DNA from: Nitrososphaerota archaeon
GTDB lineage: Archaea; Thermoproteota; EX4484-205; JAAOZP01
Direction of reading: 5' to 3'
Assembly: GCA_011605725.1 (NCBI GenBank)
Contig: JAAOZP010000012.1
Span: 192,001-256,000 of the forward strand
DNA length: 64,000 bases
The notes under the pieces are model-generated. The model did no database searches. It had not been told where the DNA came from and saw only the letters and a list, made by a program, of their open reading frames with translations. Shown here piece by piece: positions 8,853 to 25,347 of the stretch. Every line of letters begins with the position of its first letter. Position 1 is the first letter of the stretch. A program made the position numbers and the translations under genes.

Positions 8853-11747
8853 TCACCAGGTGGCTTTAATGCACGCTTTTAAGCCAGCCGGTATTTCAAC
8901 CCTCCAGCGTCCCTTTTCAAACGAGGCCTCTAAGGATCCTTGGCTAGCCTTAATGCTTACTTCTGCTGTCGGAGGCACGAATGAGGGCATTACTGCTTCT
9001 CCATTGAGGCCACTGGGTAAGTCCACCCAAAGCGTGAAACTTTTTTCAGCTCGCCTCCATCTGACATTTACCGTACCCTTGGGTGTCGGAAAACATCCAT
9101 GCGCCCAAACCAGGTCAACGGGCTCAGGCGCTATAATCACGCCACTCGTAATAACGTCTTTTGGTCTAACGCCGAGCACAAAGCTGGTTAGGAAAAACGC
9201 CGGCATGGCGCTCCAAGCGTGACAGTGGCTCCTGGTTTTTGGCGATAAAATCTCCCAAGTGGTTGTTGCACCATAATCCAGCATAGCACCCCATTCCCGC
9301 CTTATTAAATCCAATGCTTTTCCAGCCTCGCCGTCCCTAACACATGCTTCAATAAGAAAGGCTAGTGCAAACGGGCTTCCAAACTTGACAAAGTCGTCTG
9401 GCCAATCGTAGATATACTTGCGCACAATGTTTTTCCTGTCATCCTCAGCCACGTCGCAAAGATAAATCATCGTGTGGGTCTGCAGGCTGAAAACCCTGCT
9501 CCTCGTACCGTCATGATGAACCGCGTCAACGTAAGCTTTCCTCTGCTCATCCCAGAGATACTTGTTGATTGCCTGTTTAACCCTTTCAGCGAGCATTTCA
9601 AACTCTTTAGCGTCATCCTCCTTGCCTATTTTTCTCGCGATAGTTGCTGAACGCCTATATGCTTCTACAAGCATCGCGTTTTGATGTGTCACTACACCTC
9701 TACTGGGAGTATCCATCGGAGCCCAGTCAAGCATGTTCCAAGCCTCGATCTCCATCAGACCATCGTAACGGATAAACTTCTCAGCAATATTGCGCATCTG
9801 TTTTAAAACAAAAGGATAAACTTCTTTCAAAAAAGCCTCATCCCCAGTGTATCGATAGTATTCTTCACATGTCCAAACCCAGAGCAAAGCCCATGCAGTC
9901 AAAACATTCTGCCATCCACTGGGTACCTGGCTCTCAACCAACGGGGAACGGAAAAGAGATTCCCCGGCTAGAAGCCAGCATCTTCTCGCCAGGGCATAAC
10001 AACCATAAGTAGCGTAAGTAATTAGAGCCTCGTGTCGAGCATCACCCACCCAGAAGGTTTGTTCGTAGGCTGGGCAGTCTACATACGTGTCCTCGCTGCA
10101 GAGACGCAAAGTATACTTGCACATTCTCCAAATATTGTTAAGCCTCCAATCGTTGCAAAGGAATTCTCCAACCTCTTCGAAAGGATAAGTGTTTAAAAGA
10201 CATCTTACAAACTTGATGCACACAGGCATCTTCCCACCCTCAGGGAACCTGATTGTTAGAATCAAGTATCGGAACCCTCGGCGAACAACGCTCGTGTAGC
10301 TTTGCCACCCTTCTTTAGTAGTGTAACGCAGCACATTGTTAAGGCCGAAAGTATGCTGTATGTCGAAACAATAATCCTCTCTAGGATGTATCGCTTCAAA
10401 CCCGTAGAAATCAAGCTTAACGCCCCTTGGAGCCTCGATTTCAAAATCTATGAAGCCGGCTAGCTCACGGCCGAAATCTATTAAAAGCTCAGCATCGCCA
10501 TTCTCAGGAGGCCATATGATTGCAGCCTCATCGTTCGCGGAACAAAGATTTCCAATGCCTTCAGAGAAAAGATTCTCCTTAACTTCCTTTGCGAAAACGA
10601 TTCTTGCAAAAACATGGTCTGATGCGAAATACTCTGGCGCGACGGGTTGAACTAAAGCTGTTTTAAGAACGTCTTCAACCGTTCTCGCATCCCAAATAAT
10701 CCTGAAACAGTCCTCATCACGCGACTGAAACGGTCCTGCTATTGCCCACGAGGTACCAGCATTACCCAACGGGTTTTCAAACTCCAGGTTTTCACCTTCC
10801 CATACTGTTGTAAACCACCAGTCGTGATAACGCCCAGTAACATCGAACACAACCAGGTTCTCACCTTTCCTAAGCTTGAGCAGCACCGTGTTACCGTCTA
10901 CCGACATGTCCATACCGTTAACCCTGACACGCCGCGCACCCAGACCAATCCCATTCACACCAGTAACCTTTACTTCTTTAGCTTCAGAAGTTTTCACAAC
11001 TACGATGGCTAATCCAATTATTTCCTGAGGATTTGACAACCGGTCTCCAGGAACGAGGCTTGGACGCAAGTCAAAACTATACACTATGCTGGGAGGAGAA
11101 ACCACGCGTGTGCGCAATACCCGCACGGGATATACTGGTTCATTAGTGAGAAAAGGTATTGGTCTTTTAAACAGGTTAACCCACGGCTTCACCGAAACCT
11201 CGGTAAGCTCGACTGCATTCTGCCAATTGCTGTCGTCGAAGTCAGGATGCTTCCACTCCGGATCTGCTGACGAGTCATAATGTTCAACGAAACCCTGTTG
11301 GCACGATATGCGTGGGGTATGCTGGTCGTATGCTGCGCTAATGCAAACTTTCCAGTTTCGATCTGTCGCGAGAATAATCTCCCTTCCACTCTTAGTCTTC
11401 ATGCTTAACTGTGCAAGTAAGCCGCCGCGTCCCAGTGGATACTGGAAATTGGTTTCACCAGGTTGCCATACGATTATGGAAACAGTATTTACTAGACCAG
11501 CATTTAAATACGGCTTAACATCATACACGTCGTAAAACCATGAATGCTGCCATCCTCTTATAGGACCATTACCAATTCTTTTGCCGTTTATGAAAAGAAC
11601 GTAGCGTGCGTCAGCAGTTATTTTGAGTTCCGCCGCCTCAACATCTAACGGCACTTCAAAGCTCTTACGCGCATAGACGTAAAGGTTTCGCGATGCATCC
11701 TTATTGTTATTCACCCAGATCCATTTTGCTTTCCATTCTTCCGTCAT
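8853..11747 (-). CDS. GH78 alpha-L-rhamnosidase family glycoside hydrolase
   Basis: 'WKAKWIW', 'ITADARYVLFING', 'DFGRELAG', 'YVDCP.YEQ..WVGD', 'GATTTWE', 'SHCHAWS', 'PTPKG'. Confidence 0.9.
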   Translation of the reverse strand: MTEEWKAKWIWVNNNKDASRNLYVYARKSFEVPLDVEAAELKITADARYVLFINGKRIGNGPIRGWQHSWFYDVYDVKPYLNAGLVNTVSIIVWQPGETNFQYPLGRGGLLAQLSMKTKSGREIILATDRNWKVCISAAYDQHTPRISCQQGFVEHYDSSADPEWKHPDFDDSNWQNAVELTEVSVKPWVNLFKRPIPFLTNEPVYPVRVLRTRVVSPPSIVYSFDLRPSLVPGDRLSNPQEIIGLAIVVVKTSEAKEVKVTGVNGIGLGARRVRVNGMDMSVDGNTVLLKLRKGENLVVFDVTGRYHDWWFTTVWEGENLEFENPLGNAGTSWAIAGPFQSRDEDCFRIIWDARTVEDVLKTALVQPVAPEYFASDHVFARIVFAKEVKENLFSEGIGNLCSANDEAAIIWPPENGDAELLIDFGRELAGFIDFEIEAPRGVKLDFYGFEAIHPREDYCFDIQHTFGLNNVLRYTTKEGWQSYTSVVRRGFRYLILTIRFPEGGKMPVCIKFVRCLLNTYPFEEVGEFLCNDWRLNNIWRMCKYTLRLCSEDTYVDCPAYEQTFWVGDARHEALITYATYGCYALARRCWLLAGESLFRSPLVESQVPSGWQNVLTAWALLWVWTCEEYYRYTGDEAFLKEVYPFVLKQMRNIAEKFIRYDGLMEIEAWNMLDWAPMDTPSRGVVTHQNAMLVEAYRRSATIARKIGKEDDAKEFEMLAERVKQAINKYLWDEQRKAYVDAVHHDGTRSRVFSLQTHTMIYLCDVAEDDRKNIVRKYIYDWPDDFVKFGSPFALAFLIEACVRDGEAGKALDLIRREWGAMLDYGATTTWEILSPKTRSHCHAWSAMPAFFLTSFVLGVRPKDVITSGVIIAPEPVDLVWAHGCFPTPKGTVNVRWRRAEKSFTLWVDLPSGLNGEAVMPSFVPPTAEVSIKASQGSLEASFEKGRWRVEIPAGLKACIKATW

Positions 11748-11807
11748 ATTGTGTAAGATTAGGCCGTAATATAAAAATTTAACTATATTAAATAGCGGAC
11801 AGTTCAG

Positions 11808-12983
11808 CTAAGAATCGTAAATCACGCTGGTCTTATAGACATCTGGACCGAAGATCTTGTAGACCACGAGGTCCTCTTTCCCAGTGTTAACTATTTTATG
11901 GGGCTGCGTTGCAGCATCAGCAGATACGAAGACCTCGTCCAAGCCTGGGTTTTGACCTTGAACCGAGATGTTTCCAATCCTGCCCTCCCCCCTCCAAACA
12001 AAGGCGAGGTAAGCATTTTTTTCAACACTTTCAACAGTTTCTCCAGGGAAGATTTTGGTCTCCTTTCCGCAGAATTTTCTCGTTCTGTCAGGAGGAAACA
12101 CCCAGCGTTCAACACCCTTGCCCTCAAACTCGGAAGCCTCAACCTTCGTCGGAACAACATGATACTTCCTGTAGAAAAACGGGTCTCGCGACCTCTTCCA
12201 GTCGATCAGCTTAGCAACAGCCTCTTCATCAGGAAGGCCTCGCAACATGTCTTCCCTTGGAATCCTCCTTCCCCCACATACTGCTTGAAGAATATTGTAA
12301 ACATCAGACTCCTCTTGAATCTCTAGTGTTAAAGCTGTCCCGGGAGCATGAGGAACCCCGGCGAAAACGTAGAAACCCTCCCCAGTATTCAACCTGTAGG
12401 CTGGGGAAAGATCCAGAACCCTATCGTCGTCCCACTTTTTCAACAGCGGGATCAAGTCTTCCTCTCCAACGTGTGGGTGAACAGCTATGTGAGAATAGGG
12501 GAATGGCCCCTTTTCCACTGTTTCTAGGAAGTAATAAGCCTCGTCTTTCCCATTCATGTTCCAGTATTTTTTCGCATCCTCCTCTCTTGCATGCACATGC
12601 CACGGTATGGGGGATCCGATGTCAAGAACCTTAGTTAAAACCCCGAACCGGTTGCCGTGTTCCACCGCATACTTGTCGCCGAGAAGCTCGCCGGGGAGAA
12701 TTTTAAACGCATCCCTAAGAGAAAGCTTTGCATGCTTCTGAGTGAAGGATATGAAGCTTAAACCTTCGTTTTCAACCTTAACTGGGTTAACGGCTTCAAC
12801 CGATGACGCTAGCCATCTTTCACAAATCCAGCCTCTTGAGGCGCCAGCATAATAGTCTCTCAGCCCGAGTCTTCCCATTCCCGGATACAGGGTTCTAGCC
12901 ACGAAGGAGGGAGCTAGTCTCAAAACCCCGCCTGTTGCACTAAGCTCCTCTCTGAGAAGTTTTTCCTCGTCTTTAAAGCACAT
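11808..12983 (-). CDS. Cupin / class-I phosphomannose-isomerase-like protein
   Basis: PMI-type metal motifs 'KVLD...IPWHVH', 'GKDEAYYF', 'GVPHAPG', 'LEIQEESD'. Confidence 0.7.
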   Translation of the reverse strand: MCFKDEEKLLREELSATGGVLRLAPSFVARTLYPGMGRLGLRDYYAGASRGWICERWLASSVEAVNPVKVENEGLSFISFTQKHAKLSLRDAFKILPGELLGDKYAVEHGNRFGVLTKVLDIGSPIPWHVHAREEDAKKYWNMNGKDEAYYFLETVEKGPFPYSHIAVHPHVGEEDLIPLLKKWDDDRVLDLSPAYRLNTGEGFYVFAGVPHAPGTALTLEIQEESDVYNILQAVCGGRRIPREDMLRGLPDEEAVAKLIDWKRSRDPFFYRKYHVVPTKVEASEFEGKGVERWVFPPDRTRKFCGKETKIFPGETVESVEKNAYLAFVWRGEGRIGNISVQGQNPGLDEVFVSADAATQPHKIVNTGKEDLVVYKIFGPDVYKTSVIYDS

Positions 12984-13022
12984 TTTTCACCTCAAACTGT
13001 TAAGGTGGCGCTTTAAAAGTTT

Positions 13023-13853
13023 TCACGTGTTGAGGCCGAGAAGCCTCATTAATTCCTCGGCTCTTGTGAAATCAGGTATTATCGCGTCGGCCCCAGCATC
13101 CATAAGCCGTTTCCTCTTTCTCGGGTTTAACCCTATTCTTCTAACTTCATCCGAGGCGACACCAATGGCTATTGAGCCCCTGGCTTTAGCGCTTCTAATT
13201 TCAACAGGACCGTCTCCAACCACCAGCAGCTCCCTACCATGCAGATTGTTTTCGCTTAAAATCCTCTCAATAATCCTCTCCTTAGAGTTTGCCTCAGTGT
13301 AGTCAAGCGCACCGTATATCCCGCCCCTAAAGTATTCCGTGATTTTGAGAGCAGTGGCCTCTCTTAAAACATACTCATGATCAGTACCGCTTGCCAAATA
13401 CATTACCACGCCCTTTTCATAGAGCTCCTGCAAGAAGCTCCTGGATCCACATATCATCAGGTCGTCTGGGTTTAATTCCCCATTAAACAGTTTTCTAAGC
13501 CTCTCCTCCACGAGCAGCAACATCCGCTGATTATATATTCTCTTATACTCGTAAGCATCCTTAGGGTTTTTCGAGATCCCGTACCTACGAACAGCCTCAG
13601 CAAGCCACTCCATCTGCCTTATGGTTAACATCCCGGTTGAATAGTCGACGTATTCTCTAACCTCTCTCTCTATCTCCGGGGTTGGAGGATTACCGTTGCA
13701 AATCATTTCTATCATGAGTGGAATCATCACATCCTCCCACCCCTGCCTTATCACCGATATTGTTCCGTCGAAATCTATTAACGCATACTTTATGCGTCCC
13801 ACCATAGAATTGAAATCCTGATTGAGAATCTCAAACCATTGGCTCACGGCCAT
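13023..13853 (-). CDS. HAD-superfamily phosphatase
   Basis: Motif I 'DFDGT', motif II 'ASGT', conserved Lys, motif IV 'GDGPVE'. Confidence 0.9.
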   Translation of the reverse strand: MAVSQWFEILNQDFNSMVGRIKYALIDFDGTISVIRQGWEDVMIPLMIEMICNGNPPTPEIEREVREYVDYSTGMLTIRQMEWLAEAVRRYGISKNPKDAYEYKRIYNQRMLLLVEERLRKLFNGELNPDDLMICGSRSFLQELYEKGVVMYLASGTDHEYVLREATALKITEYFRGGIYGALDYTEANSKERIIERILSENNLHGRELLVVGDGPVEIRSAKARGSIAIGVASDEVRRIGLNPRKRKRLMDAGADAIIPDFTRAEELMRLLGLNT

Positions 13854-14890
13854 TCCCCTCCTTTTGAAACCTCATCGAATTTAGCCAATATTTCTCCAGG
13901 GGAAGCTGTTCCAGTAGTGTTTAGCTTTTTAAGAATAACTCCGGCAGCTAGGCTTGCAACTATGCCTGCTTCAACAGGGTCAGCTCCCCCCGCTAAGCCT
14001 GCACCCACTGCAGAGATGAAAGTGTCGCCAGCTCCCACAGGGTCTATTGGCGGCTCTGTTGGCGCAGCTGGAACATGATGGGAGCCGGAGCCTGTAACAA
14101 TTAAGCACCCCTTCTCACTTAACGTTATGTATACTGGTCGCTTCGCCTTCTCCTGCAGCTCTCTTCCTATATGTAGAAGCTCATCCATATCTACTTCAAG
14201 AGGGTTTCTAGATGGTCGTATTGCCCTCACAGCCTCCATCCGATTTGGCTTTAAAACCATGTTTCTGAAAAAACCTATACGCTCCCTCGAGTCAGCTATG
14301 AAAACCCTGTCAGGATTTTTCTCAGCAAGCTGAATCAGGCCGCTCCTAACATTTTCCGTAACCACACCGTTCAGAGACATCTGATCCTCTATTATCACTA
14401 AATCCACTTTTTCAACCGCCTCCTTAACATTTTCAATAATTTTTTCCTCCAAGCTACTGCTTAACGGACTGTAGTTTATAAAGTCAAGCCGGGAATCCTC
14501 CTGTTGAGAATCCCATCCGCACAGTATCGGCTTAACATAGGTCGGCGTAACTCTTTCGGGAGACATTATTAAGAAGTCCAGCCTAACCCCGTTTTCCCTC
14601 AACTTCTCGTTCAAGAGTCTTCCACGCCAGTCGTCTCCAATAACGGTCACCGCAAAAACATCTTCTAAACCTAAAGCCTTAACGTTGCAACATATGTTTC
14701 CTGAGGCACCTGGGGAATACGTTTCCCTGACGACTGGACGTGTATAACGTGGTGTTTCCCTAGAGAGTTCTGAACGCGTCATGTCAGCATACCAATAAAC
14801 GTCTAGAGCATAGTCTCCAATCACCATGCCCTTCAATTTTTTAAAGGAATCCAGTATTTCAACCAGCCTAGAGCGTTTCAGCCCTTCCAT
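13844..14890 (-). CDS. PfkB-family kinase, RfaE/HldE kinase-domain-like (heptose-phosphate kinase-like)
   Basis: 'VIGDYALDVYW', 'SRE.P..PV', 'PGASGN...N', 'KPNRMEA', 'DPVGAGDTF'; no C-terminal adenylyltransferase domain. Confidence 0.8.
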   Translation of the reverse strand: MEGLKRSRLVEILDSFKKLKGMVIGDYALDVYWYADMTRSELSRETPRYTRPVVRETYSPGASGNICCNVKALGLEDVFAVTVIGDDWRGRLLNEKLRENGVRLDFLIMSPERVTPTYVKPILCGWDSQQEDSRLDFINYSPLSSSLEEKIIENVKEAVEKVDLVIIEDQMSLNGVVTENVRSGLIQLAEKNPDRVFIADSRERIGFFRNMVLKPNRMEAVRAIRPSRNPLEVDMDELLHIGRELQEKAKRPVYITLSEKGCLIVTGSGSHHVPAAPTEPPIDPVGAGDTFISAVGAGLAGGADPVEAGIVASLAAGVILKKLNTTGTASPGEILAKFDEVSKGGEWP

Positions 14891-16547
14891 TCAACTCCAG
14901 CCTCCGAACTAGAGAAGCCTCTAGCATTCTGCATAAAACATGGTATATTACGGAGTGCGTCTCCTGCACTCGACTCGTATCGGATGCAGGCGCCCTGATA
15001 GCGATGTCAGAGATTTTCGCCAGCATTCCTCCGTCCCTCCCTGTTAAAGCAATCACAACTAAGCCTAATGCTTTAGCAGTTATCGCAGCATAGATAACAT
15101 TCTGAGAATTACCGCTCGTGCTTATGCCCATCAGAACATCCCCTTTTCTCGCCAAGGAGTATAGTTCCTGTGCGAATGCCATGTTTCTAGTTGGATTATC
15201 GTTTTCAACAGCACTCGAGAGAGAATGGTTTGAACCTAGAACTAGCACGCGTAGGCCCTCCTCCAGGCTTTCCACCAAGAGACTACTGTAAGGAAGCCCT
15301 TCAAACAGCCTCCTACGATGAACCGGCATGGGTCTCTTAAGCTCAAAGGATTTCGAAAGCTCTGCTGAAATATGGAACGCATCCGCGAAACTGCCACCAT
15401 TACCGCATAGGAACAGGGTTCCTCCGACTTTGAGACGCATGTCAATAACTCTAAAAGACCTAACCAAGTCTTCTACGATGACATTCAAATCCGGATGAGA
15501 CCTGGCGAATTCTTCGACAATTTTCCCCACTGACGGCTCAAGACCCTCGGCTTGGCTTCTCAGCGTGGATCCTATCCCACTAGGCTGAAAAACAACATTT
15601 TCCTCCGTTATCATCCTAACCAAGAGATGACGAAGATTAGGTATTGTAACAACATGGTCGCCCGTTATGTGAAAGCCTTTACCCCCCAGCGAGGTTGGTC
15701 TTATAACAATGTTTTTCAGAGGCCTGTAATAATACTCCTCCTCATCCTTCTTTCTGGGACGGGTATACTCCCTTATGGGTTTCAGATCAAAATTTGCGGC
15801 TGTAAACCTCTCCACTTTAAAACCAAGGTTTCTTGCAATGGATAATGCTTTAAGAAAAACTTCAGGACCGATGACGGCTGACCCGAAGTTCAAAAAAACT
15901 CCTTCATCCAGACGGCTGACAGTGTAAACGTATTTCTTGAAATCAATACCACTTGCCTCACCTATGGCGGAGAAATCGCAAGCAGGATGCTGATGGATTA
16001 TGTCCGTTCCAAGAGCCACGTGCACGGTAAATGGTATTCCCAGTCTGTAAGCATGATAGAGAACGCTGTACTTCTTAAACTTGAAACGCTCGTCTTCAGC
16101 AATCATCCTCCCTAGTGATTCACCGTAGCCTAAGCCGTCGCGAACACCACGTTGAATCGCCAAGTTCATTAACAGCCCTGTCTCCTCAGCCATTCCGAAT
16201 GTCCCATCTTCTATGCTTGTAGCAACATCCTCGCTGGTCTCGCCGATTAAAGCAATTTCAAAATCGTGTATCGATGCTGCACCGTTAGACGCTACATGGC
16301 TCACCACACCCCGCTCCATAAGATCTATGAGCACCGGCCCTAATCCACATTTTATAACGTGCGCCCCCATCATCCAGAGAACCGGCCGCCCTTTTCTCCT
16401 CGCATCAACGATCATTCTTGCAACCTCAACCAGCTCCGGGCTTTCAAAAGGCGGCGGAGGCGACTCCGGGTCGACCAAATCCTTCAGCTTCACAAGGTTC
16501 TTTCTCTCAGATATCGGGTAGGTCTTAATTCTGCTGAAATCCAGCAT
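14868..16547 (-). CDS. Fusion of a deoxyhypusine-synthase-like (GSU2086-type) domain and a GmhA-like SIS phosphoheptose isomerase domain
   Basis: N-terminal 'MMGAHVIKCG', 'NGAASIHDFE', 'SEDV', 'GTDIIH', 'GSAVIGPEVFLKA'; C-terminal 'CGNGGS.ADA.H..AEL', 'ISTSGNSQNV', 'TGRDGG', 'RVQETH'. Confidence 0.8.
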   Translation of the reverse strand: MLDFSRIKTYPISERKNLVKLKDLVDPESPPPPFESPELVEVARMIVDARRKGRPVLWMMGAHVIKCGLGPVLIDLMERGVVSHVASNGAASIHDFEIALIGETSEDVATSIEDGTFGMAEETGLLMNLAIQRGVRDGLGYGESLGRMIAEDERFKFKKYSVLYHAYRLGIPFTVHVALGTDIIHQHPACDFSAIGEASGIDFKKYVYTVSRLDEGVFLNFGSAVIGPEVFLKALSIARNLGFKVERFTAANFDLKPIREYTRPRKKDEEEYYYRPLKNIVIRPTSLGGKGFHITGDHVVTIPNLRHLLVRMITEENVVFQPSGIGSTLRSQAEGLEPSVGKIVEEFARSHPDLNVIVEDLVRSFRVIDMRLKVGGTLFLCGNGGSFADAFHISAELSKSFELKRPMPVHRRRLFEGLPYSSLLVESLEEGLRVLVLGSNHSLSSAVENDNPTRNMAFAQELYSLARKGDVLMGISTSGNSQNVIYAAITAKALGLVVIALTGRDGGMLAKISDIAIRAPASDTSRVQETHSVIYHVLCRMLEASLVRRLELNGRAETL

Positions 16548-16678
16548 CTGCGTTTAAAGCCTTCCTTAAAGCCATATATTAACTTAATTCTTTAGTGCGA
16601 AGTAGAAATGGGTTTAAGCTTATACTGTTGGGCGCTGAGGAGCTTTTTAAACCGGGTCTACGCTTATTCTCCAAACCC

Positions 16679-16709: not shown

Positions 16710-17675
16710 ATGAGGACCGTTAAAATAGGAGTAATCGGAGCAGGTTCCCACGCGAATAACGTGCATTATCCTTCACTCTCCATGATAAAGGAGGCTGAGG
16801 TTAAGGCAGTATGCGACCTTAACCCGAATAGGCTTAGGATGACAGCTGAAAAATACTCGATACCGAGCCAGTATACAGATTATAAAAGTATGTTGGAGAA
16901 AGAGGAGTTGGACGCCGTGTACCTGATAATGCCTCCTCACCAACTATACGATATAGCGGTCGACTGCCTTAAGCAGGGTCTTAACCTTTTCATCGAGAAG
17001 CCGCCTGGCATAACTCGCAGTCAAACTGAAAGCCTTGCTTGGTATGCTGAGAAACACGGGTGTAGAACCATGGTTGGCTTTAACAGAAGGTTCATACCAC
17101 TCATGAGAAGAGCCAGGGAGATTGTTGAGGAGAGAGGATTCATAAACCAGTGCGTATCCACTTTCTACAAGAATATTCTTTCCCAAGAACCTCCCTACTA
17201 TTCTGGAGCGGTGGATGTTTTAACCTCCGACGTAATTCATGCTGTAGACACTTTGAGATGGATGGGGGGCGAAGTTAGTAATGTATTCAGCTCCGTCCGA
17301 AGGCTTTTCGTACCTTACGATAACAGTTTCAACGCAATGATTACGTTCCAAAACGGTGCAGTCGGCTTCTTGATGAGTAATTGGGCAGCCGGTTCAAGAG
17401 TACACGTCTTCGAAATGCATAGCAAAGGCATATCTGCCTTTGTGAACCCGAATGACAGAGCCCTGATATACAGAGACGGTTCATCCGAGCCTGAAGTAAT
17501 ATCCACGTTCGAAGCGGCTGAAAGCACTGAGTTTCACGTATACTACGGGTTTCTAAGTGAAAACATGCACTTCATCAGATGCGTGATAGAGGACAGAGAG
17601 CCTGAAACATGCTTCAGGGACGCCGTTAAAACAATGGAGCTTGTGGAGAAGATCTATGCGAACGCGCCTCGTTAA
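16710..17675 (+). CDS. Gfo/Idh/MocA family oxidoreductase
   Basis: 'GVIGAG', 'EKPPG', 'VGFNRRF', 'DVIHAVD'. Confidence 0.92.
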   Translation: MRTVKIGVIGAGSHANNVHYPSLSMIKEAEVKAVCDLNPNRLRMTAEKYSIPSQYTDYKSMLEKEELDAVYLIMPPHQLYDIAVDCLKQGLNLFIEKPPGITRSQTESLAWYAEKHGCRTMVGFNRRFIPLMRRAREIVEERGFINQCVSTFYKNILSQEPPYYSGAVDVLTSDVIHAVDTLRWMGGEVSNVFSSVRRLFVPYDNSFNAMITFQNGAVGFLMSNWAAGSRVHVFEMHSKGISAFVNPNDRALIYRDGSSEPEVISTFEAAESTEFHVYYGFLSENMHFIRCVIEDREPETCFRDAVKTMELVEKIYANAPR

Positions 17676-17686
17676 ACAGCGATAAC

Positions 17687-19804
17687 CTAATCAAAAGGTT
17701 TTTGGCAAGATTCTAGGACAATGACCTCATACTCTTGGAGAACTGGCAACTTTAACACCACGTTCTGATCAACCTCTTCCCAATCCAGCTCCATGTTTAA
17801 CCTCAACGCCTTAGCGTAACGTGGCTTATCAAACCCGTGAAGAACTATTTTTAAATTCCTGATTAGTAGGGTTGATTCTATAGGCCTAGTCATCTCGCCA
17901 GTGAAGTTCACCAGATGTATTAGTATTCTACGTTTATCTGGCTGGTGTCTAAGAGTAACTTCAACAGTCTGAGGACAATCATCAAGCGTTACCAGTTTTC
18001 TAGACATGAGGCGGACAGCGTTAGCAATTATCCTCCTGTAGTCAGGGTTATGATAAGAATAATAGTGCTCAAAGAAGTTTCCAGCGAGGTAGAGGCAGCT
18101 TCCTCTTCCATACTTGTTAATCAGGATCGCGGGATTCTTAGATAAGGGAGGAAGCCTCACGTATCTAGCGGGCATTTTCTCATTATACATGGCTATCGCC
18201 CTTGACGTTACGGGGATCACCTCAACCCCGAAAGCCGGGCATGGAAGAAGCTTTGTGCTCACCCCCTCTACAAAAGGATGGTCGCCGACGATTGACATGT
18301 AGTCCATCATCATTGGGCCGAAGACACCTCTTCCAGCCTTAACGCCGAATACCTCGGCCAACCTGAACTCTTTAAGCATCACTCCGTATTCATCATATCT
18401 TGAACATTCAAAGCTTGCAATAAGGTTACCTCCATCCCTTACGTACTCCCTGATAGTGTCGGCACAATCATTAGAAATGCATGCAGAGTTTGGAGCAATT
18501 ATTAAGTCATACTTGCGAAGATTCTCCAGCTTTACCGACTCCTCATCAATAACGTCGAAGAGAACGTGGGACCTCACCAGTAGCTCGTAACATCCTTGAA
18601 AGCCAGCGAAGTAGTCTGCAGCCTTCCTCTCCTCGATTTTCACCTCCTTCGGATGGAAGTCCGCGAAAGGAATGCTCGCCCTGTAGAAATCAGCCGTCCT
18701 CTTGGACCAGAAGAGCCCAACCCTAGCGATCGACGTAGTGTGCTCCAGATACTCGGCGTTTCCAATTATAAAGCGGTTCATCTCCCCGGCAGCCAACGCT
18801 CCCGGCCCTTCAGCTGATCTCAACGATACACCATACCACGGATTAGCACCGTTAGCAATCGTCTCTGCATAAAGAAGCTTCGTCTCAGCTGGAGTTAAGA
18901 GATACTCATCCCACCCCTTATTAGCACCGGCTATGAAGACAACCGTCGGCTTACCGCCGGATTGTGTTTCCAGGAGCTTAGCCGTCATGCCTGCTTTCCA
19001 AAGCGGTTCAGCCCTCAGGTCATAGTATAGGAAGCCACCCTCAGCCCCCAGCATATCCTGGTAAGATATAAGCCTCCGGTTATCCCTTGCCTCAATCCAA
19101 GTCGGCCACAGGCCTGCAGAATTCATGTAGATTATCGCGTTCTGCTTAACCTTTTTCAGCGTCTTTTCAGCATCTCTAAGGTACTCAGCTATACTGTCAT
19201 ACCTAAACTCTACGAACTTCCTCCAGGAAGGGTCTTTCCAATCCTCCTCGCGGGGAATATCAAATCCATACTTCCGCTTGAACTTCTCTTGGCAGTTCTT
19301 GCAATAGCAAGTTCCCGGATAGTAGGCCGGGCCATCTAAAAATATTCCATCGATATCGTAGGAAGCCAGATCCTCGATACCTTGAAGGGACCACTCTCTC
19401 CAGGAAGGGGAGTTTACGCATGGAGAGTTTCCGGAGCCGTAAAGAAAATCTATTATCTTGCCTTCTTTATTCACCTGAAGCCAGTCCGGATGCTGCTTGC
19501 CAAACTCAACGTTTATCCAGTGCACATTGTAATAGACCAGGACCCTGATTCCTCTTTCACGAGCTTCCGGCAAGTATTCCCCCAAAAAATCCCTCGGCAT
19601 GCTTCTTGCTATCCTAGTCTTAAAGTAGAAGACACCCTTCTCCCCTCCCCAAAAATCGCTGCAACCAAGATGCTCAGCGTTAAAGCCAAGCCTACTCTTG
19701 GCTTCAGCAAGCTCAGCCGGATTTATTTTCAGAATCTCCTCGGCATCAGGTAAAGCGAAGTCCGCGATAGTAAGAGACTTGCGCCACCATTGTTCATCAG
19801 ACAT
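17687..19804 (-). CDS. Putative glycoside hydrolase (GHL6-like TIM barrel plus beta-galactosidase trimerisation / class-I GATase-like domain)
   Basis: 'HPDWLQ', 'CVNS', 'YDIDGIFLDG', Zn-site 'CYCKNC', 'YDLIIAPN', 'YVRDGGNL', 'HLVNFTG'. Confidence 0.75.
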   Translation of the reverse strand: MSDEQWWRKSLTIADFALPDAEEILKINPAELAEAKSRLGFNAEHLGCSDFWGGEKGVFYFKTRIARSMPRDFLGEYLPEARERGIRVLVYYNVHWINVEFGKQHPDWLQVNKEGKIIDFLYGSGNSPCVNSPSWREWSLQGIEDLASYDIDGIFLDGPAYYPGTCYCKNCQEKFKRKYGFDIPREEDWKDPSWRKFVEFRYDSIAEYLRDAEKTLKKVKQNAIIYMNSAGLWPTWIEARDNRRLISYQDMLGAEGGFLYYDLRAEPLWKAGMTAKLLETQSGGKPTVVFIAGANKGWDEYLLTPAETKLLYAETIANGANPWYGVSLRSAEGPGALAAGEMNRFIIGNAEYLEHTTSIARVGLFWSKRTADFYRASIPFADFHPKEVKIEERKAADYFAGFQGCYELLVRSHVLFDVIDEESVKLENLRKYDLIIAPNSACISNDCADTIREYVRDGGNLIASFECSRYDEYGVMLKEFRLAEVFGVKAGRGVFGPMMMDYMSIVGDHPFVEGVSTKLLPCPAFGVEVIPVTSRAIAMYNEKMPARYVRLPPLSKNPAILINKYGRGSCLYLAGNFFEHYYSYHNPDYRRIIANAVRLMSRKLVTLDDCPQTVEVTLRHQPDKRRILIHLVNFTGEMTRPIESTLLIRNLKIVLHGFDKPRYAKALRLNMELDWEEVDQNVVLKLPVLQEYEVIVLESCQKPFD

Positions 19805-19895
19805 ACTCTCGTGCTAAGCTTTTGAAATATTAAACCTTTTCCAGAACAATCGGCTGCAAAAACTTATATTTCAACAGCTGGCGTTATGGGGAGAG

Positions 19896-21017
19896 ATGCT
19901 GCCTGCTGAAAGGCTTGACGCCGCGTTTGAAGGCAAGTATTCAGATGCAATACCGTGGTTTGCTGACCTTACTTACTGGTATCACTCGCACGAGGAAATG
20001 GGAACCTTGCCTACTAGGTATAGGGGCGAGGGAAGAATAAACCTTTACATGGACATGGGTTGTGGTGCGCATGAAGAGCTCTACCGACCAGTTTTCAGGA
20101 TAAAGCGTAGACAGGTGGAAATCAATGTTTACGAGACCAAGGATCATGACGGAAGCATTGTCAGGCACGAAGTTTTTCAAACACCGGTAGGAGAGTTGAG
20201 ACGAGTAAGTAAACACTCATTCAAATCCCACAGTACTGCGACTATAGAGCACCCCGTTAAAACAGAGAGAGACTTAAAGGTCCTGAGATTCATATTGAGA
20301 GACCAGATTGTAGAGAAGGATCCTGAGATTTACGAATGGCAGTCGCGAGCGATGCAGAAATGGAATGGATGGGGAATTGTAAGCTCTCTACCACCGAGAA
20401 CACCGTTGATGAGGATGATAGTGGAATGGGCCGGCTTCTCAAACACTGTAAAACTCCAGTGGAGGTCTAGAGAAGAGTTTGACGAGACAATTCAAGTCAT
20501 GTGCGAGGCGGATGACCCAGTTTATGAAGCAGTCTCAGAAGCACCCGCCAAGTATGTTTATTTCGGGGAAAACCTTTCTAGCGACATGGTTAGTCCACGT
20601 CTTTTCAAAACCTACTTGGAACCCTACTACAGGAAGCGTTCTCTTGAGCTTCACTCTAAAGGGAAGAAGATTTACCTACATATAGATGGTAGCCTTAGAG
20701 GGTTGTTGCCGTTGCTTGCTCAAACCGGCATAGACTGTGCACAATCGCTTACACCAGCGCCGGCAGGCGACGTCGACGTTAAGGATTTTAGGAGGCTCGC
20801 TGGCAATAGCATAGTACTATGGGGAGGATTACCAGGTGTTCTATTCAGTGAAAAATATCCCGTTGAAATGTTGAGACGGATTCTTGAAGACATAATAGAA
20901 ACATATATAAATGATTATAAGTTTATAATAGGAGTTGCTGACCAGGTGCCACCGGATGGAGAGATAGACAGGGTGAAAATGGTTAGCGAGATAGTGAATT
21001 CCAAGGGCAGAAGATAA
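19896..21017 (+). CDS. Uroporphyrinogen decarboxylase / MtaA-CmuA (URO-D fold) family protein
   Basis: 'TP.GEL', 'EHPVKT..DL', 'SPRLF..Y..PYY', 'HIDG', 'LWGGLP', 'ADQVPP'. Confidence 0.8.
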   Translation: MLPAERLDAAFEGKYSDAIPWFADLTYWYHSHEEMGTLPTRYRGEGRINLYMDMGCGAHEELYRPVFRIKRRQVEINVYETKDHDGSIVRHEVFQTPVGELRRVSKHSFKSHSTATIEHPVKTERDLKVLRFILRDQIVEKDPEIYEWQSRAMQKWNGWGIVSSLPPRTPLMRMIVEWAGFSNTVKLQWRSREEFDETIQVMCEADDPVYEAVSEAPAKYVYFGENLSSDMVSPRLFKTYLEPYYRKRSLELHSKGKKIYLHIDGSLRGLLPLLAQTGIDCAQSLTPAPAGDVDVKDFRRLAGNSIVLWGGLPGVLFSEKYPVEMLRRILEDIIETYINDYKFIIGVADQVPPDGEIDRVKMVSEIVNSKGRR

Positions 21018-24201: not shown

Positions 24202-24354
24202 CTTCCGAAGGAAGCGAGAGTAGTCTCCATGATAGCTGTAGGCTATTCTGGTGAGAAAAAGGAGCCCGTGTCAAACTGGAAATCCCTACAGGAGATCGTT
24301 GGATACAACCACTGGCAGCACAGGCTTTTTAAAATCTTAAGGAACCAGGCTTAA
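24202..24354 (+). pseudogene. C-terminal remnant of a nitroreductase-family gene
   Basis: 'LPKEARVVSMIAVGYSGEKKEP..WKSLQEIVGYNHW' parallels the C-terminus of the intact nitroreductase at 31190-31708; similarity starts right after CGCGCGCGC. Confidence 0.7.
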
Positions 24355-25347
24355 TACTTCTGTGGATCTTAAAACCTCTTCTCCATGAAGATTAATGATT
24401 GAGTCAAAGTTCTCCCGGGTAACGTTCGTAGTTGTCCCGACTCCGGTTACGCACGCTGCGCCAGCAGCCTGCCCCGCCATTAAGATCCTCTTTAAATCCT
24501 CAAGAGGGATTTCCGACAGGCCTCCAAACATCCTATTCTTAAGCAGTGTGAATATTATTCCTGCGCTGAACGCGTCCCCGGCGCCAGTCGGGTCAACCAC
24601 TTCAACTTTAAAACCTTTCTGCCTTACGTATTTCCCATTCTTCAAAACAGCCAGCGCACCCTTTTCGCCGAGGGTTATGAAAGTAATGCCGTTAACCCTT
24701 TTACTCGCCTCCCTCATCCCATAGGCCAAACTATCTGTCTTGAATATGTTTTTCAGCTCTATGTCGTTACAGTGGAAAAAATCTGCGTAATCCAAATGCT
24801 CAACAATATAATCCCATTGCCTCCCATATGGCTCCACCATGTCGACGAACGTTAAGCTACCGGTCTTCTTCGCGGTTTTAAGAACCTCTCCAAGCCTTTC
24901 GTCGAATTCACCGCATAATCCGGACGCGGCGTAGAAAATCCGTGGTTTAACCTCAAGCACCTTCTTGGAGACGAAATCCGGGTCGAGATGCAGGCTTGCA
25001 CCCAGGTCCAGGTGGAACCTCCTGTCCTCACCTTTAACCACAAGCGCAATGTTTTTAGTCGTCCCCGTTTCAGCCAGCTCCATCAAGTGTGTGATAACCC
25101 CCTTCTCCTCTAAAACGCTTTTTATGAACCATCCGAAAACATCCCTGCCGATTGCCCCCACTATGCCGACAGAACCCTTTTCAAGGCCCAGCTGGATCAA
25201 ATCTATGGAAACGTTGCAGGGGTGGCCTCCAACAGTCAGCTTAACGCTTTTCTTAGCAAAAACTATGTGACCAGGATCCGCGATTTTAGGCAGTTCAGCC
25301 AGAATCATGTCGGCAACGATGAACCCTGAGGCGAGGACTTTCATCAA
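24337..25347 (-). CDS. PfkB/ribokinase-family carbohydrate kinase
   Basis: 'GGHPCNV', 'GRDVFG', 'TLGEKGA', 'DPTGAGDAFSAG'. Confidence 0.9.
   Translation of the reverse strand: MMKVLASGFIVADMILAELPKIADPGHIVFAKKSVKLTVGGHPCNVSIDLIQLGLEKGSVGIVGAIGRDVFGWFIKSVLEEKGVITHLMELAETGTTKNIALVVKGEDRRFHLDLGASLHLDPDFVSKKVLEVKPRIFYAASGLCGEFDERLGEVLKTAKKTGSLTFVDMVEPYGRQWDYIVEHLDYADFFHCNDIELKNIFKTDSLAYGMREASKRVNGITFITLGEKGALAVLKNGKYVRQKGFKVEVVDPTGAGDAFSAGIIFTLLKNRMFGGLSEIPLEDLKRILMAGQAAGAACVTGVGTTTNVTRENFDSIINLHGEEVLRSTEVLSLVP

Follow-up and report, generated by a model that had tools for sequence, protein, structure and literature searches.

The occurrence of heptose-type enzymes without a partner nucleotidyltransferase, in an archaeon without lipopolysaccharide (LPS), raises the question of what such enzymes do there. 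The genes concerned form an operon in a 64,000-nucleotide stretch of DNA from a Nitrososphaerota archaeon (GTDB lineage Archaea; Thermoproteota; EX4484-205; JAAOZP01), which spans positions 192,001 to 256,000 of the forward strand of contig JAAOZP010000012.1 (assembly GCA_011605725.1) and is referred to here as the window. Four minus-strand genes encode, in order, a fusion of a deoxyhypusine synthase (DHS)-like domain with a GmhA-type SIS domain, a PfkB kinase related to HldA and HldE, a HAD enzyme, and a protein resembling phosphomannose isomerase (PMI). An earlier note on this DNA proposed that the NDP-heptose pathway may be run in reverse by these genes, for heptose catabolism or salvage. 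The comparisons described below indicate that the archaeal gene set probably acts on heptose phosphates in a manner not described before and may channel scavenged heptose into central metabolism.

Enzymes and distribution of the three-gene module

Profile searches agreed with the domain identities that the earlier note had assigned to all four proteins and refined one of them, the DHS-like part of the fusion belonging to a catalogued family without a characterized function. Residues 2-306 match NF052581, the "GSU2086 family", with 419.5 bits (cut-off 250) over profile positions 2-299 of 301, so that the N-terminal 306 amino acids (aa) count, above the curated cut-off, as a complete member of the family typified by GSU2086 of Geobacter sulfurreducens, for which no activity is known; here the family is fused to GmhA and placed inside what would be a nucleotide-free module. 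The fused form has more than 7800 homologues, including proteins of Bathyarchaeia, Chloroflexi and other groups, and the names of these homologues assign the host to Bathyarchaeia/Thermoproteota.

The fusion gene, the kinase gene and a gene for a 27x-aa HAD enzyme follow one another in the same order in other Bathyarchaeia and in bacteria. The neighbourhood analysis recommended in the earlier note was run on 80 named genome loci, with counts made by tblastn, and recovered these three genes as a module in Firmicutes, Chloroflexi and a few archaea, with variable flanks. Two arrangements were distinguished. The first (Gram-negative bacteria, DPANN and Candidate Phyla Radiation (CPR)) consists of SIS, GSU2086 and HldA/HldE genes with canonical features, and the second (Firmicutes, Chloroflexi, Bryobacteraceae and Bathyarchaeia) combines GSU2086 with the 27x-aa HAD enzyme, a diverged kinase and a GmhA-like SIS protein, often together with a ROK kinase (8 loci) and with no cytidylyltransferase found in the neighbourhood of its loci.

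The best Protein Data Bank (PDB) matches of the GmhA-type domain are the GmhA structures 1tk9 and 5i01. Its score against TIGR00441 is 127 bits, below the equivalog cut-off of 209, which identifies it, on sequence criteria, as a diverged GmhA subfamily; the match falls in two stretches because of an insertion of approximately 28 aa after R405. In GmhA of Neisseria gonorrhoeae the zinc-binding and catalytic residues are H61, E65, Q175 and H183 (PMC5387315). Alignment to 5i01 and 1tk9 showed that the Zn ligands are retained in the fusion protein as H392, E396, Q528 and H536, as is the phosphate loop GISTSGNS (residues 474-481). Positions conserved in 85 % or more of the comparison GmhA genes, a set composed mostly of Gram-negative, DPANN and CPR genes adjoining GSU2086 and containing six mislabelled module copies, are all kept in the 12 labelled module copies as well. 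The GmhA active site of the module is thus intact in sequence, and with the ligands, the loop and all conserved positions kept, sedoheptulose-7-phosphate/heptose-7-phosphate is very probably an intermediate of the pathway. The insertion after the conserved Arg405 (aa 406-435 of the fusion; window positions 15240-15333) is located where GmhA crystal structures have a disordered active-site loop, and it may contact the GSU2086 domain. A standalone SIS protein of Paenibacillus likewise matches GmhA in two stretches.

The partners of this isomerase differ from their canonical counterparts. The kinase matches PF00294 with 121 bits and has rfaE_dom_I as its best NCBIfam match (161 bits, not reaching the equivalog cut-off of 345), among PDB structures it matches HldA (4e84) best, and the GAGD catalytic motif (GAGDT) is kept. 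Group-specific conservation was compared between 13 HldA/HldE-type kinases and 15 module kinases. An arginine and two lysines invariant in the former correspond to E41, Y118 and a variable position in the latter, Y118 standing in place of the lysine of the canonical TxxKxR motif; the canonical RISPEAP motif reads ELSRETP, and R44 and K214 are conserved residues gained by the module kinases. The loss of three invariant basic residues argues for a kinase substrate different from that of canonical HldA/HldE.

For the HAD enzyme no match to the GmhB models TIGR00213 and NF006506 was obtained, and the capless HAD-IIIA architecture is absent. Its structural model (predicted local distance difference test (pLDDT) score 92) has a C1 helical cap and finds beta-phosphoglucomutase as the best fold (6hdk, 2wf5; template modelling (TM) score 0.75 on the target), followed by subfamily-IA (sugar) phosphatases. 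Alignment identified DFDGT, ASGTD, K191 and GDGxVE as invariant motifs, and R36, K104, R110 and R118 as conserved basic cap residues. According to the model, GmhB is replaced in the module by a HAD enzyme of beta-phosphoglucomutase fold from a different HAD subfamily. The kinase substrate and the handling of phosphate would then both differ from those of the biosynthetic pathway, with sedoheptulose-7-phosphate/heptose-7-phosphate still an intermediate.

The earlier note found no nucleotidyltransferase nearby, an observation that holds and can be extended to the whole host genome (93 % complete) for enzymes of the HldC type. The cytidylyltransferase-fold genes of this genome number three and encode NMNAT, PPAT and a 147-aa RibL-like protein (contig C8), the last scoring 84 bits on rfaE_dom_II/TIGR02199 (HldE domain II; cut-off 181.5). 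The RibL-like gene was considered as the missing HldC and rejected, because it adjoins ribK and because 15 of the 17 genus genomes have it, with or without the module; it is a housekeeping gene, probably RibL, and not a cognate heptose enzyme. It is convergent with a gene for a winged helix-turn-helix-riboflavin kinase fusion (RbkR-like; L004:782-1935, contig C8). None of the 17 genus genomes has an HldC-type enzyme above cut-off, and the best of four PF00483 genes in the host genome reaches 92 bits against the HddC cut-off of 300. The host genome also gave no match to GmhB (TIGR00213), no HldD above cut-off and, at its 93 % completeness, no match to GT9 heptosyltransferases (PF01075), although other glycosyltransferase families may remain. 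The search for HldC and HddC that the earlier note suggested thus yielded no gene reaching either cut-off, and a cognate nucleotidyltransferase with heptosyltransferases elsewhere in the genome, which that note had named as evidence against its idea, was not found above the HldC, HddC or GT9 cut-offs. At E <= 1e-10 no HldC-like gene was found in three Firmicute carriers of the module, one of which is the isolate Paenibacillus qinlingensis. In two other carriers such a gene lies elsewhere in the genome.

Glycosidases and importers recur beside the module. A GH38 gene directly precedes it in two Bathyarchaeia, and in an Oscillospiraceae locus that starts with an ABC importer GH38 lies between the kinase and HAD genes. 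The Paenibacillus locus contains two BNR glycosidases (one SLH-anchored), a DHDPS-type lyase, a ROK regulator and kinase, and a gene for mutarotase-like DUF4432, which follows the kinase gene in two bacterial loci. Within the host genus the module is present in 8 of 17 genomes, seven of approximately 2.0-2.3 Mb and one 70 %-complete assembly of 1.2 Mb, and is missing from one genome of 2.0 Mb. In the phylum sample it was found in 8 of 251 genomes and 2 of 109 genera, and among the best matches listed the fusion is 56-60 % identical to proteins of Anaerolineae/Chloroflexi. The module is an accessory trait, and its patchy distribution together with this level of identity indicates that the archaeal genus probably acquired it from bacteria.

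The GSU2086 family and its link to heptose genes

The AlphaFold2 model of the GSU2086 domain (pLDDT 96) has as its best Foldseek matches the C-terminal cyclodeaminase domain of AgrE/ArgZ, LOR/SDH (3c2q) and DHS, with TM scores of 0.5-0.57 and sequence identities of 13-17 %. Comparison with hhalign to the DHS of the host genome gave a probability of 85 % over residues 52-212, with the first two dinucleotide-binding loops aligned, while the C-terminal catalytic region of DHS, which contains the catalytic lysine, was not aligned, and no match of the fusion protein to PF01916 (deoxyhypusine synthase) was found at E <= 0.01. The relationship of GSU2086 to DHS is therefore limited to a common fold and distant homology. 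Proteins of the DHS-like fold superfamily bind ADP-containing dinucleotides, and DHS and the AgrE cyclodeaminase use NAD as a transient oxidant. The substrates of these relatives are amines, whereas those proposed for GSU2086 are sugars. Across phyla the family has approximately 40 nearly invariant polar or charged positions, among them H63, K66, H94, D95, E97, T104, S105, E106, E122, H176, K233, R275 and R283, which suggests an active site. The host genome also encodes three full-length deoxyhypusine synthase paralogues (C8:34691-35545, C11:125585-126463 and C4:3178-4107; 327-355 bits on PF01916), where one such enzyme is expected to suffice for hypusination.

A total of 2448 relatives of GSU2086 was found among 1.8 billion cluster representatives, most of them standalone proteins of approximately 310 aa. 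Fusions were found with SIS domains (in both orders), PfkB, HAD and cytidylyltransferase-like (HldC-type) domains, and with an ARMT1-phosphatase plus a cytidylyltransferase; a tandem double GSU2086 domain (~660 aa) occurs in Paenibacillus and Cohnella (L039:9986-11962; L042:9986-11974), in Paenibacillus within the locus of the SLH-anchored BNR glycosidase and the DHDPS-type lyase. The fusions to SIS, PfkB, HAD and HldC-type domains mark GSU2086, as far as domain architecture can tell, as a fifth function linked to every step of the heptose nucleotide-sugar pathway. Gene order points the same way, with GSU2086 followed by HldA and GmhB in Akkermansia and by HldA-like, KdsB, KdsA, KdsD and KdsC genes in Omnitrophota. 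In Geobacter sulfurreducens GSU2086 is located between hldE and gmhA, and its transposon mutant has the phenotype of hldE and gmhA mutants (PMC5585712). Apart from a transposon sequencing table, nothing on the family was found in the literature, and no report of a DHS-like protein paired with a phosphoheptose isomerase was found. None of the 14 model organisms searched has GSU2086, which accounts for its being uncharacterized.

HldD is an NADP-dependent 6-epimerase that acts on ADP-heptose, and its distribution is nearly exclusive with that of GSU2086 in two phyla in which almost all genomes counted have an HldA-type kinase. Among 151 Desulfobacterota genomes, 147 have the kinase, 101 have GSU2086 (single-copy, ~400 bits) and 32 have HldD above cut-off. 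The counts for both, GSU2086 only, HldD only and neither were 8, 93, 24 and 26 in this phylum (odds ratio 0.093, p = 5e-8) and 1, 32, 17 and 51 in 101 Acidobacteriota genomes (odds ratio 0.094, p = 0.006; the last cell is 50 without one unpublished genome, G438), both tests being inflated by relatedness. This pattern fits replacement of HldD by a DHS-fold enzyme and suggests that the replacement is catalytic.

Two other roles for the family were examined and rejected. GSU2086 is not a substitute for GmhB, as GmhB-like genes were found in five of five Gram-negative carriers. A weak match to TIGR00300 (nickel-pincer-nucleotide-dependent ornithine cyclodeaminase) raised the possibility of dependence on a nickel-pincer cofactor, which was rejected for the host lineage on the basis that LarC (PF01969), the insertase that builds this cofactor, was not found in any of the 17 genus genomes (8 with the module) or in two Firmicute carriers. 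In Desulfobacterota LarC is present in 100 of 101 GSU2086 carriers and 36 of 50 non-carriers (odds ratio 39), an association that may stem from clade structure or from a cofactor link specific to a lineage.

A proposed nucleotide-free heptose route and its alternatives

The reading preferred here, with slightly less than even confidence, is a nucleotide-free route from heptose to sedoheptulose-7-phosphate in which the DHS-fold domain serves as an epimerase. The module would link glycero-manno-heptose with sedoheptulose-7-phosphate without an NDP-sugar intermediate, and in a glycan-degrading archaeon the direction would be towards sedoheptulose-7-phosphate. The kinase would first phosphorylate heptose released by glycosidases. 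The GSU2086 domain, carrying a tightly bound nicotinamide cofactor, would then perform a redox-neutral epimerization, likely at C6, which is the task of HldD on ADP-heptose, and the HAD enzyme would shift or trim the phosphate, either as a mutase or as a phosphatase acting on a bisphosphate. The GmhA-type isomerase would complete the route to sedoheptulose-7-phosphate. We infer the substrate, the order and direction of the steps and the epimerase role. If the kinase has been retargeted and works with an epimerase, GmhA and a HAD enzyme that shifts phosphate, the lack of a nucleotidyltransferase would be accounted for, as would the selective remodelling, the gene contexts and the patchy distribution.

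The proposal keeps the earlier idea of heptose catabolism, which is favoured by the heptose-type enzymes, the intact GmhA site, the lack of HldC, HddC, GmhB, HldD and GT9, and the catabolic surroundings, and drops the wording that the pathway runs in reverse. A literal reversal of the biosynthetic steps was rejected on established thermodynamic grounds: the kinase and the phosphatase cannot run backwards, and catabolism needs another order of steps and other substrates, with which a remodelled kinase pocket and a HAD enzyme that is not GmhB are compatible. The nearest analogy, in function only, is the Leloir pathway (GalM, GalK, GalT, GalE and PGM), in which a sugar is phosphorylated and epimerized with a bound nicotinamide cofactor, the phosphate is moved and the product enters central metabolism; in contrast to that pathway the proposed route has no nucleotide-sugar intermediate and no homologous enzymes, the shared logic being a proposal. 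With the ADP-heptose pathway of LPS synthesis the module shares a GmhA-type isomerase with identical conserved residues, a kinase related to HldA/HldE and a HAD enzyme, all in one tight operon, but its host is an archaeon without LPS, adenylyltransferase, HldD, GmhB or GT9 heptosyltransferase, and the module differs in the remodelled kinase, the C1-capped, beta-phosphoglucomutase-like HAD enzyme and the fusion of GSU2086 to GmhA. The GDP-D-glycero-alpha-D-manno-heptose pathway (GmhA, HddA, GmhB and HddC; S-layer and capsule glycans) likewise starts with GmhA from sedoheptulose-7-phosphate in organisms without LPS, but uses the GHMP kinase HddA and the PF00483 guanylyltransferase HddC, where the module has a PfkB-type kinase and the host PF00483 genes stay at 92 of the 300 bits needed.

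Several observations weigh against the proposed route. The sequence of isomerase, anomeric-type kinase and phosphatase is precisely that of the biosynthetic steps, and simple catabolism offers no obvious use for a phosphatase; motif IV of the HAD enzyme (GDGxVE) is more like that of phosphatases, and the idea of a mutase comes from fold similarity. In Gram-negative bacteria GSU2086 is found within LPS biosynthesis operons with HldA, GmhB and 3-deoxy-D-manno-octulosonic acid (Kdo) genes. The flanks of the module vary, some loci lying among housekeeping genes or beside genes for an SDR epimerase, GT2/GT4 glycosyltransferases or a TMEM260-like protein. We know of no demonstration of alpha-heptosidase activity in GH38 enzymes. 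The near-exclusivity with HldD is confounded by phylogeny: many genomes have neither gene, and 12 of the 24 Desulfobacterota with HldD and without GSU2086 also lack LarC, are small (1.5-2.6 Mb) and may form one clade.

A broader version, which we consider speculative and unlikely as a whole, would make the GSU2086 family a nucleotide-independent heptose-phosphate epimerase that takes the place of HldD in most Desulfobacterota, many Acidobacteriota and other phyla. In monoderms and a few archaea it would form the core of a Leloir-like, nucleotide-free pathway for eating glycero-manno-heptose from LPS cores and other glycans, with the neighbouring GH38 enzymes acting as alpha-heptosidases.

The foremost alternative is biosynthesis, a doubtful but serious contender in which the module makes beta-heptose-1-phosphate from sedoheptulose-7-phosphate, GSU2086 modifies or epimerizes it, and the product is nucleotidylated by an unrecognized or generic enzyme or goes directly into a surface glycan or small molecule. 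The gene set and its order are homologous to steps 1-3 of the ADP-heptose pathway, and the bacterial operons with heptose and Kdo genes, the fusions to HldC-type domains and the Geobacter mutant phenotype (PMC5585712) tie GSU2086 to synthesis, as do, for the module itself, the GT2/GT4, SDR epimerase and TMEM260-like neighbours in some loci. NDP-heptose enzymes are moreover known in archaea (PMC11461863), and the four generic PF00483 sugar-1-phosphate nucleotidyltransferases of the host genome could be candidates for the final step, but they lie far below the HddC cut-off. HddC also uses the alpha-anomer made by a GHMP kinase, not the product of a PfkB kinase. Biosynthesis is further opposed by the lack of HldC-type enzymes in the 17 genus genomes and the three Firmicute carriers and of GT9 in the host genome, by a kinase pocket and phosphatase that differ from the canonical enzymes where GmhA does not, and by the recurrence of the module beside glycosidases and importers.

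Action on another manno-configured sugar is improbable. Mannose-6-phosphate or phosphorylated mannosides (cf. E. coli MngB) would pass through the kinase and GH38 cleavage, and the SIS domain would convert mannose-6-phosphate to fructose-6-phosphate. GmhA chemistry is the C7 analogue of that of PMI, in three lineages the module has a GH38 alpha-mannosidase as its neighbour, with the two joined in one database open reading frame (ORF), ROK glucokinase-like kinases are frequent bacterial neighbours, and the operon contains a PMI-like gene. That gene would, however, be redundant beside a SIS domain isomerizing mannose-6-phosphate. All residues conserved in the comparison GmhA genes are retained by the SIS domain, no change particular to the module points to a shorter substrate, and the GSU2086 family is linked to the heptose and Kdo genes of LPS.

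A regulatory or scaffolding role for GSU2086, as a nucleotide-binding subunit that assembles or controls the heptose enzymes and is not itself a pathway enzyme, would suit its fusion to every other pathway enzyme across lineages and in both orders and the dinucleotide binding of its fold superfamily, but we hold it to be quite unlikely given the nearly invariant polar positions, which look like an active site, the single-copy, ~400-bit conservation in Desulfobacterota and the HldD exclusivity that suggests catalytic replacement. An ordinary ADP- or GDP-heptose pathway with its nucleotidyltransferase and heptosyltransferases elsewhere in the genome is the least probable of all, for although 7 % short of completeness and an 84-bit RibL-like protein leave it some room, that gene adjoins ribK and occurs in 15 of 17 genus genomes with or without the module, nothing reached the cut-off for HldC, HddC, GmhB, HldD or GT9, and HldC is likewise absent from the isolate Paenibacillus genome.

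The locus, its surroundings and wider meaning

The features of the operon and of its neighbours are listed in Table 1. The description of four tightly coupled minus-strand genes, the first three overlapping, agrees with the ORF coordinates: genes 1 and 2 overlap by 23 nt and genes 2 and 3 by 10 nt, and gene 4 follows gene 3 after a 39-nt gap with a ribosome-binding site (GAGGTGA, 12987-12993). The intergenic region of 162 nt between the fusion gene and the divergent Gfo/Idh/MocA gene contains TTAATATAT, which is the putative operon promoter. Genes 1-4 probably form a single transcription unit, with the PMI-like gene co-transcribed. The GH78-like gene is indeed downstream on the same strand and the Gfo/Idh/MocA gene divergent, as had been noted; the former has an A/T-rich TATA-like stretch of its own (11766-11793), and the latter adjoins the module only within the host genus.

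Table 1. Positions of the operon genes, domains and adjacent features in the window
Feature	Position	Strand	Description
Fusion gene P0001	14868-16547	-	Gene 1; 559 aa; GSU2086-family (DHS-fold) domain plus GmhA-type SIS domain
HldA-like PfkB kinase P0002	13844-14890	-	Gene 2; 348 aa; substrate pocket predicted to be remodelled
HAD enzyme P0003	13023-13853	-	Gene 3; 276 aa; C1-capped; predicted phosphatase or phosphomutase
PMI-like protein P0004	11808-12983	-	Gene 4; 391 aa; divergent class-I PMI relative
GSU2086-family domain	15630-16544	-	aa 2-306 of P0001; deoxyhypusine synthase/ornithine cyclodeaminase fold
GmhA-type domain	14904-15491	-	aa ~353-548 of P0001; sedoheptulose-7-phosphate isomerase type
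GH78-like six-hairpin glycosidase	8853-11747	-	Context gene downstream of operon
Gfo/Idh/MocA oxidoreductase	16710-17675	+	Divergent context gene
TATA-like box TTAATATAT	16574-16582	-	~30 nt upstream of fusion-gene ATG; read from sequence

The PMI-like protein scores weakly against TIGR00218 (class-I PMI; 38 bits, curated cut-off 116), has 1qwr as its closest PDB entry, with the LTKxLD, HVH, KDE and PHA motifs kept in the local alignment, and falls in the Atlas among "putative M6P isomerase" clusters without a Pfam family. Its gene is next to the module only in the host genus (three loci, L017, L019 and L020), and its homologues elsewhere are found in other sugar loci, one bacterial homologue adjoining GHL6 and uroporphyrinogen decarboxylase (URO-D)-like genes. 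The four-gene operon is therefore probably the conserved three-gene module plus a PMI-like add-on from a separate sugar-utilization set, and of the four-gene heptose operon first described, genes 1-3 stand as the conserved module, with the PMI-like and GH78-like genes outside it. A pair of GHL6/GH42-like glycosidase and URO-D-like genes is present in the window at 17687-21017, and the same pair with a LacI regulator accompanies the bacterial PMI-like homologue, which suggests a conserved sugar-utilization unit using an enzyme of the uroporphyrinogen decarboxylase fold. On a Bathyarchaeia-like contig (L111, 172 kb), phosphotransferase system (PTS) IIA, IIB and EIIC genes occur near a PMI-like homologue, a GH38 gene and a gene for a 254-aa SIS_2 protein; PTS components are unusual in archaea.

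Glycosidase genes (GH116, GH35, GH78-like and GHL6/GH42-like) make the window a glycosidase island, which also encodes a major facilitator superfamily (MFS) transporter; a GH38 gene, one of five or six in the host genome, is located just upstream. The catabolic neighbourhood claimed for the operon is thus found locally but is not conserved across lineages. A second PfkB kinase gene (24337-25347, minus strand), weakly ribokinase/fructokinase-like, is located 8 kb from the operon, and on another Bathyarchaeia contig its orthologue (L018:7369-8400) immediately precedes the fusion gene; by analogy with the ROK kinase of bacterial loci, its product is a possible partner kinase. The DNA occurs in 17 datasets, which come from at least nine studies and are mostly hot-spring metagenomes; no RNA dataset was listed among them.

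Textbooks treat heptose metabolism as a closed pathway of five enzymes. It is a target for antibiotic adjuvants and also yields ADP-heptose and heptose bisphosphate, both agonists of innate immunity. Two thirds of the Desulfobacterota sampled and one third of the Acidobacteriota sampled have GSU2086, which was also found in an Akkermansia genome and in gut Clostridia, and a highly conserved extra family of this kind means that the heptose pathway has an unrecognized component or variant. If the proposed epimerase role is true, it would be a new activity for the deoxyhypusine synthase fold. If the module is catabolic, it would be, to our knowledge, the first described route for heptoses as food, and would bear on how bacterial necromass is turned over in hot springs, sediments and guts.

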